From the IMG/VR virus record IMGVR_UViG_3300032224_000903, positions 25,744 through 89,743 of that record: DNA of 64,000 nucleotides; one strand, written 5' to 3'. Each line of letters opens with the position of its first letter. The first letter of the stretch is position 1. The notes below the pieces were generated by a model. The model worked only from the letters and a program-made list of their open reading frames with translations, searched no databases and was not told where the DNA came from. The position numbers were made by a program, and so were the translations under genes. This document shows positions 27,292-38,353 of this stretch, piece by piece. The DNA comes from a virus. Taxonomy: Duplodnaviria > Caudoviricetes.

Positions 27292-27689
27292 TGGTGGAGA
27301 CGAAGGGAGTCGAACCCTTGTCCGATCCGCAGCACCATAGATGGACTACACGTTTATTCTATTATTCACAACAGACAAATAGTAAGTTAATATCGGGAAA
27401 CTTACAAGACCGTTCCTGACCGGATTTTCAAGAGCCGCCAAGTTTGCTCCAACACTCTAGGGTTATGTTCCACCGAAAGGACTTCTGTTCCTAGGTTATA
27501 CGTCCATCAACCCGATTTGTAAGTGTGCTATTAGGCTACAGCTACAGTAGAAGTTGCGATTAAACCACAAGCTTCCATAACGTTATAAACGTTGTCTTTT
27601 GTTTTTTACCACCGTGTATTAAAGTCATAGATGATGTCTGACTACGTGCCCATTTACCATACCAACGTCCGTCAAATCCAGGCGTCCCC
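27292..27689 (-). ncRNA. ssrA: tmRNA (transfer-messenger RNA)
   Basis: 5' GGGGACGCCUGGAUUUGAC; 3' T-arm AAGGGUUCGACUCCCUU plus CGUCUCCACCA; 7-bp acceptor stem with G3-U70; internal tag frame ending GUA GCC UAA UAG. Confidence 0.93.
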
Positions 27690-27698
27690 ATAGTAATA

Positions 27699-27706
27699 CA
27701 AATATA
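27699..27706 (-). promoter_or_regulatory. Bacteroidota -7 promoter element for tmRNA
   Basis: TATATTTG on the minus strand, 10 nt upstream of the tmRNA 5' end. Confidence 0.6.
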
Positions 27707-27997: not shown

Positions 27998-28678
27998 CTA
28001 AATTGTCAAGGGTAACCGTTTTTCAAATAACGCCTCAAATAGTAGTTTATTCTTTTCCCATTGTTTATTGGTTATACCTACTGATTTATGAGTGACCCCA
28101 AATTTGGTTGTTAAACCGATCTTAACCCCTTCAAATTGGTTCTCAACACAGAACGAAATATCGTAGAAATGAAACCCTTCAAACTGTTCGTTAAATTCCT
28201 TCTTTATAAGACTTTTACGGACCATAAAGAATAAACCATCCACAATTACAACATCTTTAAGAACGTCGTTAAATACCCCCTTAGAATAGTGATTTACGTG
28301 TCTTTTACCCTCATGGATATGACCAACCACACCAAACATATTTTCACGATTATCCCACCATCTTCCACTCGTTAATTTATCGGTTCCCGCAATTCCAATA
28401 ATTCCATAATCAGCATGTTTTTCAAACAACTTAACAATCTTTGGGGTGATATTTGGTGTCTCCAAAATAAGGTCGTCATGCATGAAAACAACGATGTCAT
28501 TAACACTTTCTTTTAACCCTTTGTTATAGACTTGTGTTAATGACATTTCGCCGTCATTTTCATACATCAATATTTCCGTATTTGGATGGGAAAATATTCT
28601 TTTTACATGATCGTAATATGTTGGATCAATCTTTCTTGTGGATATAACCACACTTACCATTTCATTATTCTTCGACAT
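27998..28678 (-). CDS. GT2-like glycosyltransferase (Glyco_tranf_2_5 type)
   Basis: YNKGL..S..DIVVFMHDD, VDGLFF, FHFYDISFC. Confidence 0.78.
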   Translation of the reverse strand: MSKNNEMVSVVISTRKIDPTYYDHVKRIFSHPNTEILMYENDGEMSLTQVYNKGLKESVNDIVVFMHDDLILETPNITPKIVKLFEKHADYGIIGIAGTDKLTSGRWWDNRENMFGVVGHIHEGKRHVNHYSKGVFNDVLKDVVIVDGLFFMVRKSLIKKEFNEQFEGFHFYDISFCVENQFEGVKIGLTTKFGVTHKSVGITNKQWEKNKLLFEALFEKRLPLTI

Positions 28679-29414
28679 ATAGTACTTGTATTTTATGATT
28701 GATTTCGACTAAATCAATAACAATCGGTTTATTAATTGGTTCATAGGCGGCGGTACAGATTGATGCATTTACAAATGCGGTTTTTTTACCATACTCAATT
28801 CCATAACCTTCATGAATGTGACCAAACACATTTACCAATGGGTTTATTTCACCAATTCTGTTTATTAAACATTCACACCCAACATGTGTATTAGGTTGTC
28901 TCCAATTATTAACTAAATCTCCATATCCATTTGGTGGACTATGTGTTATTAAAACATCTGTGTCCTCAGGTATACGGTTCCACTTCTCTTGTAATTCAAT
29001 ACCTAATCTTGGTAAGTTAAATGCCCAATCATAGAACCAAGGTTGCCAAGGACTACCATAAAATTTGATAGGTCTTGAGAACTCGGGAGTTTCAATCGTA
29101 ATAAAATCGTCCTCCAAATAAGTTACATTAGATTGAGATAAATTATTGGGAGACATTAAATGACTTAACCATTCGTAATCTTTTCTGTGATGAGGTAAAT
29201 TTATTCTTTCAAAACAATGGTCGTGATTACCAGATATGAATATTTTTTGATCCCATCCACCTAAGTTTTTAAACCATTGAATAAAATCGGTAACGTCTCT
29301 TTCTCCACCTCTATTTGAAATATCACCCGCGTGAATTAACACATCACCCTTTGGTAAAGGATGCTCCATCTCATGATGAAGGCTGTGGGTATCTGAAATA
29401 CATACTAATCTCAT
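28665..29414 (-). CDS. Calcineurin-like metallophosphoesterase (MPPED/239FB type)
   Basis: ISDTH, HAGD, GNHD, ITHSPP, FGHIHE. Confidence 0.92.
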   Translation of the reverse strand: MRLVCISDTHSLHHEMEHPLPKGDVLIHAGDISNRGGERDVTDFIQWFKNLGGWDQKIFISGNHDHCFERINLPHHRKDYEWLSHLMSPNNLSQSNVTYLEDDFITIETPEFSRPIKFYGSPWQPWFYDWAFNLPRLGIELQEKWNRIPEDTDVLITHSPPNGYGDLVNNWRQPNTHVGCECLINRIGEINPLVNVFGHIHEGYGIEYGKKTAFVNASICTAAYEPINKPIVIDLVEINHKIQVLYVEE

Positions 29415-29450: not shown

Positions 29451-30056
29451 TTATACTTCAAAAACTAAATTAACTCGTAATTTATCTGAATCGTTGATAA
29501 AAGAATGTATCGTGTTTCCAAATGTATATATGGAATTAGAATCTAAATTACAAATACGACAAGATTCGTCATATTGTAAAAAGTAATTATTAAACTCATC
29601 TATATTATCTTTTAATTCAATATGTTTTTGATTAATAATATCTTCAGTATTGTCAAACATTATAAAATCAGAATATGCCTCATAACTAAAAAATCTGTCA
29701 TGATTATTAAATGAAACTAAATGTCTATTTTTACCATGATCTCTATGAAAGTGAACATACGTTTTCGGTGGATACGTCATCAACCACATCATTTTAATAT
29801 TATAAATTGATTTTAGATATTCAATAGATTCTTTTATCGAATTGGTAATTAATTGGTTATTTAAAGATCCAATTGGAGTCCTTTCAATGTCTATAACAAC
29901 TTCTTTATCTTTTGGAGATATTCCATCGTAGTAAACAAAATCATTATTAATTCCTTTAGGTAATTCGTGAGAATAAAAATTAAAAGATTCAAAAAAGTCT
30001 TTTAATAAATTAAAACTTGGGTGATTGATTGTTAGTTCTTTTTTAATAATATCCAT
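29451..30056 (-). CDS. Cupin/2OG-Fe(II) oxygenase-like protein (Asp/Asn beta-hydroxylase-like)
   Basis: YPPKTYVHFHRD (HxD), IHSFIN, RVNLVFE. Confidence 0.6.
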   Translation of the reverse strand: MDIIKKELTINHPSFNLLKDFFESFNFYSHELPKGINNDFVYYDGISPKDKEVVIDIERTPIGSLNNQLITNSIKESIEYLKSIYNIKMMWLMTYPPKTYVHFHRDHGKNRHLVSFNNHDRFFSYEAYSDFIMFDNTEDIINQKHIELKDNIDEFNNYFLQYDESCRICNLDSNSIYTFGNTIHSFINDSDKLRVNLVFEV

Positions 30057-30072
30057 ATTAATAAATAGTCAT

Positions 30073-30098
30073 AAAAAAAGTCAGAATTTCTTCTGACT
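30073..30098 (-). terminator. Intrinsic terminator ending the giant ncRNA candidate
   Basis: Minus strand AGTCAGAA-GAAA-TTCTGACT followed by T7. Confidence 0.8.
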
Positions 30099-30109
30099 AA
30101 TCTTGTATA

Positions 30110-30979
30110 GGCCGTATGGTTTTACATACATTCACCACCACTTTGTTTTTCTAAACAAAGAAAATAAAACTCTGAGAATACAAGTTTTAACAATCGACTT
30201 AGGAACATTATTTGTTTCTTTCCCTTTCCACGAACTTTTGATTCGTACCGATCAATGACGGTCAATTAGATTAACCAATCCTAAAGTCATCAGATACTCT
30301 TTTATTACTTATTACTCAACAAATCTGCCGACCTGTTTCAACCTTGCGGGTTTAGAGAACTTTCTTAAAAATCATATTGGGATTGAGTCCCTTTATGGCC
30401 GTGAACCTCTCACGACTAAGTAGTCACCTGTCTCCAATGACTGACGAACACTTTTTCTTTTTATGTATGATTTTTATACCAAAATAAAAATTTAGTTTTC
30501 CGAATTGGGAAAGTAGTGGTTCGTCACCTAGCCAAGTCATCTTTTGAACGACTCGATACTAAACTACTCTCTGAAGTGTCCCCACCTCCATATTTTTGGT
30601 TTCCTTCGAGATTAAACCCTTGGTAGGATTTAGTCAAGGACACTAACAGCACCACCTGTTTTTTGTCATACCTTCCATCTTACGACGCTACGGTTTTAAG
30701 ACCACCATTGTATTGAATCACGCAATTGTATAATCGGATAACTATACTTCTCACAAACTAATTCTATGGATTATTCTTATTGGTGTTCCCACCTCAACCA
30801 AACAACTCGGATTGCTTGGTCATCTAACCATTTCGCTACGGAGTTACCCTCACTACTTCAGGTCAAACGATATTCCACTTGTCTACTCGAGATCCATTAC
30901 TGAATCCGCAATTTGTCCCAACCAAGGACTCCTCACTTTATCCCACTTTCATGGTTTATTTTATTGACTATAGACGGCC
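30110..30979 (-). ncRNA. Candidate giant structured ncRNA (GOLLD size class)
   Basis: About 870 nt with no credible ORF, between a promoter and a terminator. The ends pair (GGCCGU/ACGGCC) and there are many hairpins including GNRA loops. Confidence 0.7.
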
Positions 30980-31030
30980 AATATTTTTATTCAAAGAACA
31001 TTATCTTTTGGATTATTCACCCTTCTTTTA

Positions 31031-31062
31031 CAAAGATAAGAAATGTTTTCTAATATTCCAAA
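31031..31062 (-). promoter_or_regulatory. Bacteroidota promoter driving the giant ncRNA candidate
   Basis: TTTG-N20-TATCTTTG on the minus strand; no ORF downstream for about 1 kb. Confidence 0.7.
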
Positions 31063-31278
31063 TTATTTTGAAACTTTTTTAGATTTTTTTTCTTTTTTAA
31101 TTTCATATGATCCACCTTGATCGTGACCAACTTCAACATTCTCTTTTGGTGATTCAGTTATAATACCTTTCCATTCTGTTTTAGTTGTGTATTTCCATGT
31201 TGTACCGGCCATTTGGTAAGCTTGTTTTTCATCAACTCTAATAATATTTCCTGTTTTAGTATTTTTTAAACACTTCAT
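31063..31278 (-). CDS. Small hypothetical protein
   Basis: ATG ORF of 71 aa, MKCLKNTKTGNIIRV. Confidence 0.65.
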   Translation of the reverse strand: MKCLKNTKTGNIIRVDEKQAYQMAGTTWKYTTKTEWKGIITESPKENVEVGHDQGGSYEIKKEKKSKKVSK

Positions 31279-31444
31279 ATTTTCTATTTTTAATAATATA
31301 AGAAATTTTATTTAAAAAACAAAATAATCAATAGGGACAGTTCCTTCACTTCTGTCTTGTCTCTCCGTAGCAGTCAGCACTATTGATATTTGATGGATGA
31401 AAAACATCTATTCTTCTTGCGGACTTCCATCGGAGTCCCATATC

Positions 31445-32206: not shown

Positions 32207-32295
32207 TGGCGGAGAGAGTAGGATTCGAACCCACGGACCTGTTACAGTCTACAGTTTTCAAGACTGTCGCGATAGACCAACTCTGCCATCTCTCC
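32207..32295 (-). tRNA. trnS: tRNA-Ser(TGA)
   Basis: Cloverleaf, anticodon loop CUUGAAA, long variable arm, GUUCGAAUC, encoded CCA. Confidence 0.95.
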
Positions 32296-32495
32296 GTTGA
32301 CACCTTTATTTATCCAACTCATAGGTGTCTTAGCTGTCCCCTTTCGGGTTAGGAATAGACCATTGGGTTACTATATTTACCCCTTATAGTAGACGGTCAA
32401 TCTAAATAGAACCTTGTCCTATCATCAGTTCCATATGGTCGTCAAACCACTTCTCTTCATATTGGACATACTATTCGGTGACTAACCGAACCGTG

Positions 32496-32570
32496 TGGGA
32501 AAGTTTGGATTTGAACCAAAGACCTTTGCTTTATGAGAGCACTGCTACTAACCAACTGAGCTACATTCCC
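32496..32570 (-). tRNA. tRNA with CAT anticodon (elongator Met or lysidine-modified Ile2)
   Basis: Loop CUCAUAA, GGUUCAAAUCC T-arm, A73, no initiator features, CCA not encoded. Confidence 0.85.
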
Positions 32571-32579
32571 TATTTGTCG

Positions 32580-32664
32580 CTGACACGGTAGGAGTCGAAC
32601 CTACGGTGGATTTTACTCACCAGATTAACAGTCTGGACCATTCGGCCTCTATGGCAACGTGTCA
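32580..32664 (-). tRNA. trnN: tRNA-Asn(GTT) with an atypical long variable region
   Basis: Acceptor UGACACG/CGUGUCA, G73, loop CUGUUAA, T-arm GUAGGUUCGACUCCUAC, 15-nt variable region; CCA not encoded. Confidence 0.85.
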
Positions 32665-32944
32665 TTCTATCTTCCAAAAAATTTGATTCTAATCCAACTT
32701 AAATTGCACCATCCGATTCATTGATCTGGTTGACAAAGTCCTCGATTGGATTAGTCTCAAAAAGTTACAGGTTTTTCGTACCATCTATGTACATCATAAC
32801 AGATATAATCTGCGGTTACATTTTCGTATTGGGCTAATTACTCCCGACTTATAGTAACTCTACCCTCACCGTTCTACATCTAGATTCAAACGGATCTTTT
32901 GGGATTCATAGACAGTGGGGTCACACCACCGTCGTCACCTGTTG

Positions 32945-33017
32945 AGCCTCGTTACGGACTTGAACCGCAGACCTAATCATTACAAATGACTTGCTCTACC
33001 AACTGAGCTAACGAGGC
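32945..33017 (-). tRNA. trnT: tRNA-Thr(TGT)
   Basis: GCCUCGU/ACGAGGC acceptor, loop UUUGUAA, GGUUCAAGUCC; CCA not encoded. Confidence 0.93.
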
Positions 33018-33055
33018 TTATTTTATTTCAATATGTCAAAGAACCACTTATTTTA

Positions 33056-33086
33056 CAAAGATAATAAATATATATGAATATACAAA
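33056..33086 (-). promoter_or_regulatory. Bacteroidota promoter of the tRNA cluster
   Basis: TTTG-N19-TATCTTTG. Confidence 0.65.
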
Positions 33087-33154: not shown

Positions 33155-33937
33155 CTATTCACTCCAATGTTTATCTCTAAGTTCATATACATCAATTGGT
33201 TCACGTTTCATATGACTTCCCTGATTGTAAAATGCACCTTTTTTCAAGAATCCACCTAAAAAGTTTCTTCTCATTCTATTTGAGTTGTTAGCTTCCGACC
33301 CGTGTACACAATGTGAGTGTAATAAAACCACTTGTCCTTTTTTTAGAATTCCTTCTACCTTACGGAAATCGTGTCCCTCAGGCATAATACAAGGTTTACC
33401 TCTTTCATTTCTCCAAAATGATGGATTAGTTTTTGCTCTTTCCTCATCAACCTCAATTGGTAATGTTTGTAATCTATGTGAACCTTCGTAGTTCCACACG
33501 GAACCATTACCATTGTCGTGGTTATCCAATGCTAAGGCCGTATTAATAATTTCATTGTGTTTACAACCCGTGTAAAAGGCGTTTTGGTGCATATCTCTAC
33601 CTAATTGTCCTGGTGGTTTAAAATACGACCATGATTGCATTCCGTCGATTTCACCCTCCATAAGAAACTCACAAGCTTCAATAATTTTAGGATGAACATA
33701 TAGTTTTGCAAGTTTATCCGATAATTTATGTGGATATGCGAATGGATCCCATTCACCCCACTCCTTACCATCGTCTGTTAATGTTCCTTTTCTCTCCTGA
33801 CGTAAACGTTCAAGTTCATCATTGATTTCGTCACATTCTTCTTCTGTTAAGAGTTCTAATGTGGTAAATCCTCGGTATCTCCAATCAAATGTCATTTGTT
33901 GGATTTCCAATTCTGTAAGATGTTTAAAATTTCCCAT
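33155..33937 (-). CDS. Phytanoyl-CoA dioxygenase (PhyH)-family 2OG-Fe(II) oxygenase
   Basis: YFKPPG...MHQNAFY (Asn in place of the usual Asp), GSH, LLHSHCVHGSEANNSNRMRR. Confidence 0.82.
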   Translation of the reverse strand: MGNFKHLTELEIQQMTFDWRYRGFTTLELLTEEECDEINDELERLRQERKGTLTDDGKEWGEWDPFAYPHKLSDKLAKLYVHPKIIEACEFLMEGEIDGMQSWSYFKPPGQLGRDMHQNAFYTGCKHNEIINTALALDNHDNGNGSVWNYEGSHRLQTLPIEVDEERAKTNPSFWRNERGKPCIMPEGHDFRKVEGILKKGQVVLLHSHCVHGSEANNSNRMRRNFLGGFLKKGAFYNQGSHMKREPIDVYELRDKHWSE

Positions 33938-34781: not shown

Positions 34782-36437
34782 ATGAAAAAATTATTAACTC
34801 TACTTGGAATACTAGTAATATCCATAGCCACAAATGCACAATTAACGGTCAATCAATTAGTAACTCCTACAACAGGGTTAAAGGTTGGTGATACAGTTTC
34901 GGTAAAATATACCGTTGCGAGAGGTACAACAACTCCTCGTTATTTTTGGTTAAGATACCAATATAACAATAAAGCACTTGCATATGTTTCAACAACGTTC
35001 TCACAAGGAACATCAGTTCAAACATTCTATACAAGTTGGTCATCTTATAAGTTTACCGCAAGTACCGCAAATAGTATTACTGCAACAAGTTTATATGATC
35101 AATATAAAGCAACACCTTGGGCGTATACCACTAACGCAGATTGGAATGTTGGGCAATTAACAGTTCAAAGAACAGATGCATCAATCAACGGAGATATTGC
35201 AACTCAAAAATATGTAATAAAAGATTTGGGTGATTATACAAACATACACAAATTAGATTTATCATATTCAATTGATGCAGCAGGAGCTAACATAGGACCA
35301 ATTACAACTGATCCAGGTACAATGTCTTTATCAAATGTAGTTGGTAATACATCTCAATTTAAAGTAAGAGTCTTATTCCCAACAGGTTATGATATTACAG
35401 CACATAGTGTGTCTTTAATACCATTAAAGACAACAGGTGAGATTGATTGGACGGCACAGGCAATTGCAACTAAAACATTAGACGCAAGTGGTGAGGCAAC
35501 ATTTACAACCGAAGCAAAAGTAGGTGACGAATTTGCTGTATTTGTAAATGCAGCGTTACAAAAAACATTTATGAATAATATCATTACAGTATCTGATGCG
35601 TACAAGGCTTTTTTAGGTATTACACAAGTAGACTTAACAGGAACACCAACATATTTTAACAGACCAACATTACAAAAGAATATTGGTTTGATTACAAAAG
35701 GTAAAACAACATTTAGTGAAAGTGACTCATATAATTTATTTGCAAATGTTATGGGAATTGATGTTTCATCAACTGCTATGATTCCATCAAATGCTGCACC
35801 TGTAAATGGTGTTGTGAATTTTAAATGGTATAACGGTTTATTAAATCAAAGTTGGTTAGATGGTGTACCTACTTACAAAACAAAAGTAACATCCTCAAAT
35901 CAAGCTGTAGATATGGTATTTGCTTGGGGTGGTGATTTGGATTGGTCACATTCATCCGATCCTGACGTGATTGCTGCAAGAGTTGCTGCTGGTACTTATG
36001 CTAATTCAGTAAAAGACGGTTCAACTATAAAATCATTTGCGGTAAGTTCAATGAGTTATACTCCAACAGTTGAAAAGGCAACATTAGGATTAAACTCTAC
36101 AATAGTTAATGGTAAAGTTGTATTAACAGGAACTTTAACAAAAGAAGGATTGGCGGGTTTAGAAGTAATATTACAATACGATAATACAAAATTAACATTT
36201 GATAACATTGCATTTGATGCGGGTCCAAGTGTAACTAACTTCTCAACAAACGGAGATGGTAGATTGACATTTGGTTCTATGGATCAAAATAAGACGGCAA
36301 GAATTAAAATAGGAACACCATATAAATTAACTTTCACACCAAAAGAAACCATTACAAATACCGCTGGTTTATTCTACACAGTTTTAGCCGATGCGGTTGA
36401 TGGAAGTGGAAACAAAATCAACTTAATAGTTGAATAA
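34782..36437 (+). CDS. Secreted protein with cohesin-like domains and dockerin-like motifs
   Basis: Signal peptide ATNA|Q; IITVSDAYKAF; AWGGDLDWSHS; C-terminal GLEVILQYDNTKLTF. Confidence 0.65.
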   Translation: MKKLLTLLGILVISIATNAQLTVNQLVTPTTGLKVGDTVSVKYTVARGTTTPRYFWLRYQYNNKALAYVSTTFSQGTSVQTFYTSWSSYKFTASTANSITATSLYDQYKATPWAYTTNADWNVGQLTVQRTDASINGDIATQKYVIKDLGDYTNIHKLDLSYSIDAAGANIGPITTDPGTMSLSNVVGNTSQFKVRVLFPTGYDITAHSVSLIPLKTTGEIDWTAQAIATKTLDASGEATFTTEAKVGDEFAVFVNAALQKTFMNNIITVSDAYKAFLGITQVDLTGTPTYFNRPTLQKNIGLITKGKTTFSESDSYNLFANVMGIDVSSTAMIPSNAAPVNGVVNFKWYNGLLNQSWLDGVPTYKTKVTSSNQAVDMVFAWGGDLDWSHSSDPDVIAARVAAGTYANSVKDGSTIKSFAVSSMSYTPTVEKATLGLNSTIVNGKVVLTGTLTKEGLAGLEVILQYDNTKLTFDNIAFDAGPSVTNFSTNGDGRLTFGSMDQNKTARIKIGTPYKLTFTPKETITNTAGLFYTVLADAVDGSGNKINLIVE

Positions 36438-38353
36438 TGAGGAAATTACTAACAATATTATTCTTATTCATATTTTCAATAACCTACTCCCAATCAGGTG
36501 TGGGTTATTTAAATTATACTGTTTATAACATTATAAGTAATGGGGCAGGAGCATATGCGTATAATTCAAATGATTTTGTTAATATGTTTGATGTTACAAA
36601 AGGAGCAAGTGTTCATACATCAGGTACGGCAGCAGTTAATTCTGCAATGTTAGATTTTAATGGTAGGTGGATAACAGGATTACCATATAACGGTTCATAT
36701 ACTGGTATTAAAATTACTGGATGGTTTGTTCCAAAAGAAACAGGAACATATCAATTTTTTATAAATGGTGATGATGCCGTTGATTTTTCATTAGATGGAA
36801 AAGTTGTAACATCTTTTTATGGTCCACATGGATTTGGTGCAAACGTAGTAGGTTCTGTTAGTTTAGTTGCTGGTAAATCATATACCTTTATGGCAAGATA
36901 CCAAAACTGGTCAGGTGGTTGGGGTATGGATTTAGAATGGAAAAGACCATCACAATATAATTGGGCTATTCAAGCGGATGAGTGTTATTCAACATCACCA
37001 TCAACACCAACTAAAAAAGCAATAACTAATTTTAACTTCAATACAAATATTACACCAACAACATTTTCAGTAGGTTCGGCATTGAGTTCGGCAGGTTCAA
37101 TTGATATAACAACATTATTAGATAGTAATAAAATAAATACAGGATATAAGGCAATAATTACACCAGGTCAAGTTGAATGGTCATATACAAATCCAAACGC
37201 AAATTGGTTAAATGGTAATAGTAGATTGTTGATTGATATGAGACAAGTTGGTGGTATAGACCCAACTAAAATTAATAGTGTAAAAATATTTGATGCATAT
37301 GAAGGTAATATGACATATACATCACATGATGCAAATGGTTGGGCAATATATACAGTACCATCACCACTAACAAAAATAACCGATGGAACATCTGCAAATA
37401 ATTCATCTATTAGAAATGTAAATGGTTGGAATACTGATTACGCATTTCAAAGTACCATATCACTTGCAGCAACTCAATCATATAAAACACAAACAATAAC
37501 CACATCAACCACAAATAACTTAACAACATTGTATAATAGTATTGTTACAGTATCTGATGTTTATTTGGCATTTAAAGAATTAGCAAATAATGGTTTATTT
37601 GGTAATCAAAATGGTAATGAGTTTGGATATGGTATTCAGTACAAAAACGCAGATGTAAATGATGATGGTACATTTAATGAGGCTGATTGTTTTGCATTAT
37701 TACAAAATTTAACAGGAGTAAAAACATTAGTGGATACATTCAACTTAAACAAAACAATGAGAATTATACCACAAACAAAATATGATAGTATTGGTAAATC
37801 TAATTGGACAACATTTACAACGCCATTAGGGAGTTCTTATTCATTTGATATTAACACAGGTAAATCAACCGACACATTAAATTTAGCGGTGGCTTGGAAA
37901 GGTGATGTTAACTTATCTCATTCAACAACACCGAAGTCAAACAATTTAACATCAATGTCGTTAAGATCAATGAGTATTAGTAATGAAATCAACGCATCTA
38001 TAATGACAGAAGTAATTGGAGATAGTGTTTATGCATATATTACATTAGACCCATTAGGACAAAATTTAATGGGTGCACAATTTCAATTAAAATACGATAA
38101 TTCAGTATTAAAATATAATAGAGTAAAATTTATAACAAAAGGTTCACCTACAAATTGGGGTGTAGATAATGATGGGTTTGTTGGTTTAGGTTCATTAATT
38201 ACGGGTAGTAGTTCATCATTGGATAATACAACTCAATATATTATATCGTTTACCGCAAATAAAAAATTGGATAACATATTTGGTTTAATTTCAATAGGGG
38301 CAACCGATGCGGTTAACCAAAGTGGAACATCATTAAAAGTAAGAGTAAACTAA
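36437..38353 (+). CDS. Secreted PA14-domain protein with dockerin-like EF-hand and C-terminal cohesin-like domain
   Basis: Signal peptide TYS|Q; PA14 ITGWFVPKETGTYQFFINGDDAV; ADVNDDGTFNEAD; GAQFQLKYDNSVLKY. Confidence 0.72.
   Translation: MRKLLTILFLFIFSITYSQSGVGYLNYTVYNIISNGAGAYAYNSNDFVNMFDVTKGASVHTSGTAAVNSAMLDFNGRWITGLPYNGSYTGIKITGWFVPKETGTYQFFINGDDAVDFSLDGKVVTSFYGPHGFGANVVGSVSLVAGKSYTFMARYQNWSGGWGMDLEWKRPSQYNWAIQADECYSTSPSTPTKKAITNFNFNTNITPTTFSVGSALSSAGSIDITTLLDSNKINTGYKAIITPGQVEWSYTNPNANWLNGNSRLLIDMRQVGGIDPTKINSVKIFDAYEGNMTYTSHDANGWAIYTVPSPLTKITDGTSANNSSIRNVNGWNTDYAFQSTISLAATQSYKTQTITTSTTNNLTTLYNSIVTVSDVYLAFKELANNGLFGNQNGNEFGYGIQYKNADVNDDGTFNEADCFALLQNLTGVKTLVDTFNLNKTMRIIPQTKYDSIGKSNWTTFTTPLGSSYSFDINTGKSTDTLNLAVAWKGDVNLSHSTTPKSNNLTSMSLRSMSISNEINASIMTEVIGDSVYAYITLDPLGQNLMGAQFQLKYDNSVLKYNRVKFITKGSPTNWGVDNDGFVGLGSLITGSSSSLDNTTQYIISFTANKKLDNIFGLISIGATDAVNQSGTSLKVRVN

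Follow-up and report, generated by a model that had tools for sequence, protein, structure and literature searches.

A GOLLD RNA gene with predicted host-type expression signals in an uncultured phage

In this study, we describe a gene for GOLLD RNA on the minus strand of an uncultured phage, at positions 30980-30165 of a 64,000-nucleotide stretch of viral DNA (hereafter the window). The gene is a new member of an already known RNA family and no new class. GOLLD RNA reportedly goes back to Weinberg et al. 2009. We regard it as highly probable that the explanation holds as a whole, i.e. a phage-borne GOLLD gene whose promoter, leader and terminator are predicted from the sequence and whose assembly into a cage is expected by homology. 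The leader of this RNA contains a word that most likely, by a short sequence match, is a host-type boxA, the element that accompanies ribosomal RNA transcription in bacteria.

Identity of the RNA

An Rfam scan of the whole window returned one strong match other than tRNAs within 30073-31062, namely the GOLLD model RF02032, which is matched over its entire length (model positions 1-416 of 416) by 30571-30169 on the minus strand with 297.6 bits and an E-value of 3.8e-84. The gathering score of this model is 150 bits. The window sequence thus scores about twice the family threshold, above the 165 bits of the published member in Caulobacter phage phiCbK and the 215 bits of that in Acinetobacter phage AM24, and the alignment printed by cmscan has all helices of the model formed. 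If at least 150 bits over the whole model is taken as the mark of GOLLD membership, then 30571-30169 (minus strand) belongs to the family. A permissive cmscan of 29900-31300 at E<=1 yielded, besides GOLLD, only a chance-level match to rliD (13.5 bits, E 0.62), with no match to the models of ROOL, OLE, HEARO, RNase P or group I/II introns.

The first-pass annotation of this DNA had proposed GOLLD and had named RF02032 and these other Rfam models as the comparison to make; the full-length match bears the proposal out. Its further suggestion of a "divergent GOLLD" or a "new giant RNA class" does not survive a score of this height over the full model. The same annotation had stated beforehand that a strong GOLLD match would confirm the RNA yet lower its novelty, and such a match is what was obtained.

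Amid densely coded flanks, the interval 30073-31062 holds no open reading frame longer than 67 aa on either strand, in agreement with the earlier statement that about 1 kb is devoid of a credible reading frame. The core has a GC content of 38.1%, compared with 31.1% for the window and 23-30% for the flanks, and its transcribed strand consists of 57.8% purines; the region had rightly been called purine-rich and higher in GC than its surroundings. The MFE z-score of the region is -2.6.

Homologues and covariation

Among deposited phages, BLAST found matches in LR745206 (634 kb) and LR756502 (642 kb), both of them huge phages that lack annotation. Both matches fall in the 5' part of the interval, and in both phages a full GOLLD 3' domain follows just downstream (287 and 275 bits, respectively). 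We searched IMG/VR with the 16-mer GAGGGTAACTCCGTAG, which is invariant in the window and these two phages, and obtained 53 contigs; nhmmer located the RNA in 42 of the 53, with both GOLLD domains on 40 and the 5' part alone on 2. Several of the GOLLD-bearing contigs are 200-480 kb long.

The resulting alignment comprises 34 distinct sequences, whose identity to the window across the core is 55-99%. For these, RNAalifold predicted 191 pairs, 142 of them with compensatory changes. The refined structure contains 222 pairs in 38 helices, with 96.5% of cells paired and 156 of the 222 pairs changed on both sides, whereas in the controls none of 500 shuffles reached any of the measures and slid partners were only about 40% paired. 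Covariation is found in 20 of the 21 helices of the 5' domain. Helices 22-38, which make up the 3' domain, are 83-100% paired, and both-side changes occur in each of them except an invariant helix of 3 bp. The helix with which the Rfam model begins, replaced in the RNAalifold fold, is 99.3% paired with compensatory changes at four of its nine pairs. Hence, the "giant structured ncRNA" of the first-pass annotation is an 816-nt core with a covarying fold, and the set of covarying homologues by which that annotation had wanted it checked is at hand. Its seven individual stems fared less uniformly: CC-GCAA-GG, GUCGUGA/UCACGGC, GAGUCGU..AUGACUU and ACAG/CUGU match covariation-supported helices, while GUCAUUG..GUGAC, CCUUG/CAAGG and GGUUU/AAACC lie outside the conserved fold.

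Domain architecture

According to the 34-sequence alignment, the conserved core (30980-30165) is 816 nt long and folds as two domains; like all elements of the RNA described below, they are read on the minus strand. The 5' domain (30573-30980; 408 nt, 21 helices) lies outside the Rfam model and is defined by full-length homology to the two huge phages and 40 IMG/VR contigs and by covariation. The 3' domain (30169-30571) is the conserved half covered by RF02032, identified by cmscan and by covariation in alignment A2; the last core helix extends to 30167, and conservation of the core stops at 30165. With a structured 5' region of 408 nt and a total of 816 nt, the RNA has the build of a GOLLD, that is, a structured 5' region of about 400 nt and a total of about 800 nt or more.

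An A/U-rich linker of about 60 nt (30514-30453) sits inside the Rfam-modelled 3' region and joins the two domains. The long-range 10-bp helix of the Rfam model (AGUCAUUGGA / UCUGAUGACU), annotated there as a pseudoknot, forms with ten of ten pairs between AGUCAUUGGA at 30442-30433 and UCUG+AUGACU at 30294-30285. A further pairing spans the linker, GACGAAC at 30525-30519 with GUUCGUC at 30449-30443 (helix 23, 7 bp), and covaries: six of its seven pairs are changed on both sides and the seventh is invariant. In the cmscan output, the structure line of the Rfam model does not show this pairing. In the cryo-EM structure of GOLLD, a covariation-supported contact of L20 with J13/15 runs between chains (PMC12286853), and the linker-spanning pairing may perhaps be this inter-chain contact.

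At the 5' end, the first core hairpin UGGC/GUCA (30980-30977 with 30968-30964) has the covarying pairs 131:147 and 132:145. Its loop pairs as GUCUAU (30975-30970) with GUAGAC (30886-30881), 90 nt apart and with two covarying pairs. Together, hairpin and loop pairing form a 5' pseudoknot with covariation on both helices.

Towards the 3' end, the hairpin loop at 30326-30329 reads GGCA and has a self-complementary GC core. Across the homologues the loop is GGCA in 26 sequences, GCGA in four and GCA in four. The symmetric kissing loop L21a of the published structure, one of the self-complementary loops that bridge chains, shows a GC/CG switch (PMC12286853), and the pattern seen here would fit such a switch, provided that this loop is the counterpart of L21a, as we infer from its sequence.

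The alignment also points to sites that tolerate insertions. One homologue (L039, 2056-3085, minus strand) has a 36-nt insertion at A2 columns 149-184, which adds two small hairpins after the 5' hairpin, and others have loop expansions at A2 columns 249-264 and 576-617.

Promoter, trailer and terminator

Upstream of the core, a Bacteroidota-type promoter is found at 31031-31062 on the minus strand, made up of a -33 element TTTG (31062-31059), a 20-nt spacer and a -7 element TATCTTTG (31038-31031); transcription is predicted to start near 31025. In the window, the pattern TTTG-N20-TATCTTTG occurs eight times, with 6.1 occurrences expected, and is not enriched overall; most of the copies are placed immediately in front of genes, and the tRNA array is one such case. 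The TATCTTTG (TAnnTTTG) box is kept upstream of GOLLD in many homologues, both close ones and several distant ones. A scan for sigma-70-type promoters gave six sites, with 6.9 expected, and was uninformative.

Past the 3' end of the core, the sequence contains a trailer hairpin, CUUUGUUU-AGAA-AAACAAAG (30141-30160, minus strand). The closer relatives, at 82-99% identity, retain this hairpin; in L046 and L008 it shows the compensatory change CUUAGUUU/AAACUAAG, and it is absent from L003 and from all distant homologues. It is followed by an intrinsic terminator (30072-30098, minus strand), which consists of an 8-bp stem with a 4-nt loop (30098-30079) and the run UUUUUUU. Promoter and terminator had both been proposed in the first-pass annotation, at 31031-31062 and 30073-30098, and both stand. 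As judged from these signals, the GOLLD gene would be a transcription unit of its own, about 950 nt long, from about 31025 to about 30072.

Two homologues (L040 and L021), and only these, have a 10-bp complement to the GOLLD 5' segment, GTCGGCGGCA / TGCCGCTGGT. The core is followed there by a tRNA-Glu, and the complement is located on the far side of this tRNA, about 146 nt from the 3' end of GOLLD; 5-9 of 200 shuffles reach a complement of this length. This complement may be a helix that closes around GOLLD plus tRNA, or it may be due to chance.

A boxA-like word in the leader

The transcribed leader, downstream of the TATCTTTG box at 31038-31031, contains the boxA-like word AUGUUCUUUGAAU (30989-31001, minus strand). 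It is preceded by a weak hairpin of 4 bp that is read from the sequence, GGGU-GAAUA-AUCC (31010-31022, minus strand); in close relatives this hairpin reads GGGU..ACCC, and it is possibly boxB-like. The 9-mer pattern [GC][TCA]TCTTT[GA]A gave a boxA-like word in 33 of 34 homologues, located 19-111 nt before the core, the background being 0.027 per 130 nt. The words of the homologues are GTTCTTTGA or GTTCTTTAA and, in one clade, GCTCTTTGA or GATCTTTGA, and they are often extended to ...AAnnATTGAAA. Many homologues have the longer form GTTCTTTGAA-N2-5-ATTGAAA, whereas the GOLLD leader of the window has GTTCTTTGAA alone.

In bacteria, boxA is bound by NusB-S10, and long untranslated RNAs are shielded in this way from termination by Rho (PMC6614797, PMC13753749). 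Classically, boxA occupies two positions, one in the rRNA leader and one in the 16S-23S spacer (PMC6614797). The consensus reads UGCUCUUUA(ACA) for E. coli and AUGAUCUUUGAAA for B. subtilis (PMC6614797, PMC13753749), both of which the boxA-like word resembles, and the E. coli form with which we compared AUGUUCUUUGAAU is UGCUCUUUAACA (PMC13753749).

A scan of GTDB species genomes for GTTCTTTGAA-N2-5-ATTGAAA gave at least 120 loci, mostly from Bacteroidota or Ignavibacteria among the matches listed. Likewise among the matches listed, and given an assembled rRNA operon, the longer word lies about 90-150 nt upstream of 16S at five loci (L067 twice, L073, L077 and L056). Two of these belong to one Saccharicrinis chromosome, and the others to a second Saccharicrinis, to Marinifilum flexuosum and to a Bacteroidales MAG. 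A further listed match, from an Ignavibacteriales MAG (L066), is located in the spacer ahead of 23S. Ten more of the listed matches have the 5' end of a 16S gene within 260 nt. Furthermore, the sequence (contig or tile) ends within 200 nt downstream of the word in 36 of the 121 listed matches, compared with 4 upstream, and these downstream ends cluster at 75-93 nt from the word across the 121 matches listed; we take this excess as the signature of assemblies broken at 16S. An rrn-type boxA can be recognized by a boxA-like sequence between promoter and RNA gene, which is the position of AUGUUCUUUGAAU, and by occurrence of the word in rRNA leaders or spacers of the host lineage, which is seen for the longer form in the presumed host phylum.

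The tRNA array of the same phage has a layout like that of GOLLD, with the terminator of the upstream gene, a promoter and a boxA-like word. Its leader (33026-33086, minus strand) contains the promoter TTTG..TATCTTTG at 33086-33056 and then GTTCTTTGACATATTGAAA at 33044-33026, which is the longer form with one base off and ends 9 nt before the tRNA-Thr that starts at 33017. This copy is closer to the word of Bacteroidota rRNA leaders than the copy in front of GOLLD.

On the GOLLD strand upstream of the Rfam-modelled 3' domain, the boxA-like word was not found in phiCbK (about 1 kb) or in AM24 (about 1.4 kb). As such, it is not a universal feature of GOLLD, and we limit the claim to the present clade. 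Our literature search returned no paper that links GOLLD to boxA, and the DNA word itself led to no relevant paper on boxA.

Phage and genomic neighbourhood

Genes for a large terminase (TerL), a portal protein and a Lon-like protease, among others, are found in the window. With the TerL proteins of uncultured huge phages and of phages of Microcystis and Flavobacterium, this TerL shares only 27-30% identity. Two GOLLD copies among those with 94-97% identity to that of the window lie on contigs of 334-335 kb (L030 and L055), which makes a jumbo phage likely; the copy of L030 is identical to that of L012. The reading of the leader word as boxA also supports a Bacteroidota host. The source is probably a jumbo phage, about 335 kb in size, with a host from the Bacteroidota.

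Genes for tRNA-Ser, -Met, -Asn and -Thr (32207-33017, minus strand) are located 1.1-2.0 kb upstream of GOLLD, and a phage tmRNA (27292-27689, minus strand) 2.4 kb downstream. The RNA had been annotated as lying in a phage next to tRNAs and a tmRNA, and indeed the four tRNAs and the tmRNA are on the GOLLD strand, with TerL and portal genes in the same window. Within 1.5 kb of GOLLD, 26 of 40 homologous loci have tRNAs and six have a tmRNA, all on the GOLLD strand. The GOLLD hallmark of being phage-encoded beside tRNA genes is thus found in the window and in the homologous loci.

The six loci with a tmRNA within 1.5 kb on the same strand are L046, L006, L017, L019, L047 and L024, and phiCbK (L176) has a permuted tmRNA at 716-1034, about 500 nt from GOLLD on the opposite strand, so that the neighbourhood of GOLLD and tmRNA recurs in unrelated phages. 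The tmRNA region of the window (27292-27706, minus strand) encodes, according to ARAGORN, the tag ATSTVAVA followed by two stops (GCA ACT TCT ACT GTA GCT GTA GCC TAA TAG), which is short and ordinary-looking. A TATATTTG box ends 9 nt before the 5' end of the tmRNA, with no boxA-like word there. The tRNA-Asn(GTT) at 32579-32664 (minus strand) is 86 nt long in ARAGORN and hence would have a long variable arm, unusual for Asn. Proteins encoded nearby include a PA14/cohesin-like protein (36437-38353, plus strand), a PhyH-type dioxygenase (33155-33937, minus strand) and a calcineurin-like phosphoesterase (28665-29414, minus strand); for the ORF of 201 aa immediately downstream of GOLLD (29451-30056), Pfam gave no match.

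Discussion

Could the RNA be something other than an ordinary GOLLD? A new giant RNA class, or a highly divergent GOLLD, might be suspected because the 5' 408 nt lie outside the Rfam model and BLAST against deposited phages gave just two partial matches. [quoted passage not shown] Moreover, the 5' domain is common to many phage contigs that also bear the GOLLD 3' domain. The covariance-model match and the homologues with both domains rule out a new or divergent class, which we rate as extremely improbable. A decayed or unusual coding stretch, or an A/T-poor spacer with incidental structure, would be in keeping with the small ORFs of 30-67 aa on both strands, but it is contradicted by the covariance-model match; over the 34 sequences the substitutions keep base pairs rather than frames, with both-side changes in 1488 cells compared with 422 after shuffling, and indels are frequent inside the loops of the alignment, which speaks against any reading frame. 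The chance that this explanation applies is negligible. A different matter is whether the two ends of the RNA are closed by a GGCCGU with ACGGCC helix, as the first-pass annotation had claimed. The letters are there, UAUUGGCCGU at 30983-30974 and ACGGCCUAUA at 30115-30106, with six contiguous Watson-Crick pairs in the window, and these pairs are kept in close relatives that share the 3' trailer. Their match is no better than chance, however: a complement of equal length in a 220-nt flank arises in most shuffles, and the comparison with shuffled flanks across all 34 sequences gives the helix no support. In addition, L012 has the same 5' end without the 3' partner, distant homologues have no equivalent and many of them have a tRNA directly 3' of the core, and the 5' partner is already taken by the two covarying pairings UGGC/GUCA and GUCUAU/GUAGAC. 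We thus reject the closing helix on the shuffled flanks, L012, the distant homologues and the occupied 5' letters, and consider it very unlikely.

As to the leader, the GTTCTTTGAA word could have a purpose other than antitermination, as a processing site, a site for a phage protein or a part of the mature RNA, with GOLLD as a corollary being transcribed without Nus factors. The distance from word to core varies between 19 and 111 nt, phiCbK and AM24 showed no such word in the stretches searched upstream of GOLLD, and boxA of Bacteroidota is itself predicted from sequence, all of which lends this explanation some weight. Against it, the longer form occurs at both classical boxA positions in Bacteroidota/Ignavibacteria, the rRNA leader as well as the 16S-23S spacer; at its CUUU core the word agrees with the consensus of both E. 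coli and B. subtilis; and it also precedes the tRNA array of the window phage. A function outside antitermination is, in our view, a possible but rather unlikely explanation, and we continue with the reading of the word as a host-type boxA.

On this basis, we propose the following course of events for the GOLLD gene. Host RNA polymerase would start at the host-type promoter near 31025 and would first transcribe a leader in which a small hairpin is followed by a boxA-like word such as leaders of Bacteroidota rRNA operons contain. The candidate boxA word (GUUCUUUGAA) would most likely recruit host NusB/S10 and other rRNA antitermination factors, allowing the polymerase to pass the long untranslated structured RNA without Rho-dependent termination and perhaps helping it to fold, until transcription would stop at the terminator (30098-30072). 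The RNA would then self-assemble into a hollow 14-mer cage, as expected from homology to one marine sequence, env-38, and would by homology accumulate late in infection (PMC12286853).

Taken further, Bacteroidota jumbo phages might treat GOLLD like rRNA, as a stable RNA: a host promoter and the rRNA boxA word of the host phylum would load the Nus complex for read-through and for co-transcriptional folding towards cage assembly, and GOLLD, made together with the tRNA array and beside the tmRNA, would belong to one translation-RNA island. We consider this generalization about equally likely to hold or to fail. For the function of GOLLD, a role in the phage's handling of translation RNAs appears to be the likeliest area, which we put forward with low confidence; it is suggested by the persistent same-strand tRNA arrays, the tmRNA and a published ribosome pull-down.

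By itself, the locus changes little, since it adds one more gene to a family that is catalogued and structurally solved. Its value lies in a clean and diverse set of 34 full-length sequences, drawn from large phages of freshwater or metagenomic origin; in this set the support by covariation is as good for the 5' domain as for the 3' domain and extends to the 5' hairpin-loop pseudoknot and the pairing across the linker. The study also provides evidence that GOLLD is a separate transcription unit with defined signals in this phage clade. An rRNA-type boxA word in the leader would offer a testable handle on GOLLD production, and the expression logic together with the constant neighbours, tRNAs and tmRNA, narrows the search for the function of GOLLD.

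Comparison with known systems

ROOL RNA (RF03087) resembles the present RNA in being a large phage RNA near tRNA genes and a homo-oligomeric cage former (PMC12286853), the cage being predicted by homology for the window RNA; it differs in that the window RNA has no ROOL match at E<=1. With the bacterial rRNA boxA system (NusB/S10, NusA, NusG, SuhB and S4) the putative leader element shares a CUUU-centred word between a promoter and a long structured untranslated RNA, a small adjoining hairpin and, in the presumed host phylum, the occurrence of the longer form before 16S and 23S. Here, in contrast, the cargo would be a phage RNA, there is a single promoter and no boxC was identified.

The closest relative is GOLLD itself. 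Its cryo-EM structure is that of env-38 (Kretsch et al. 2025, PDB 9MEE), an RNA of 833 nt that is split into 1-420 and 421-833 (PMC12286853) and assembles without protein into a hollow 14-mer cage of D7 symmetry (PMC12286853). GOLLD is further known for its association with phages and tRNAs and for its rise during lysis (PMC12286853). The window RNA shares the full-length match to the 3'-domain model including the long-range helix, the A/U-rich linker, a structured 5' domain of about 400 nt, a core of similar length (816 nt here, 833 nt published), the phage location and the adjoining tRNA genes; a self-complementary hairpin loop of the GC/CG type may be a further common trait, if our assignment to L21a holds. 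We find no family-defining difference. One difference in detail is that phiCbK GOLLD has a tRNA inside the linker, whereas the window GOLLD has none there. What sets the present clade apart from other GOLLD RNAs is a host-type promoter of its own with a boxA-like leader, a terminator of its own instead of a tRNA directly 3', and a tmRNA nearby.
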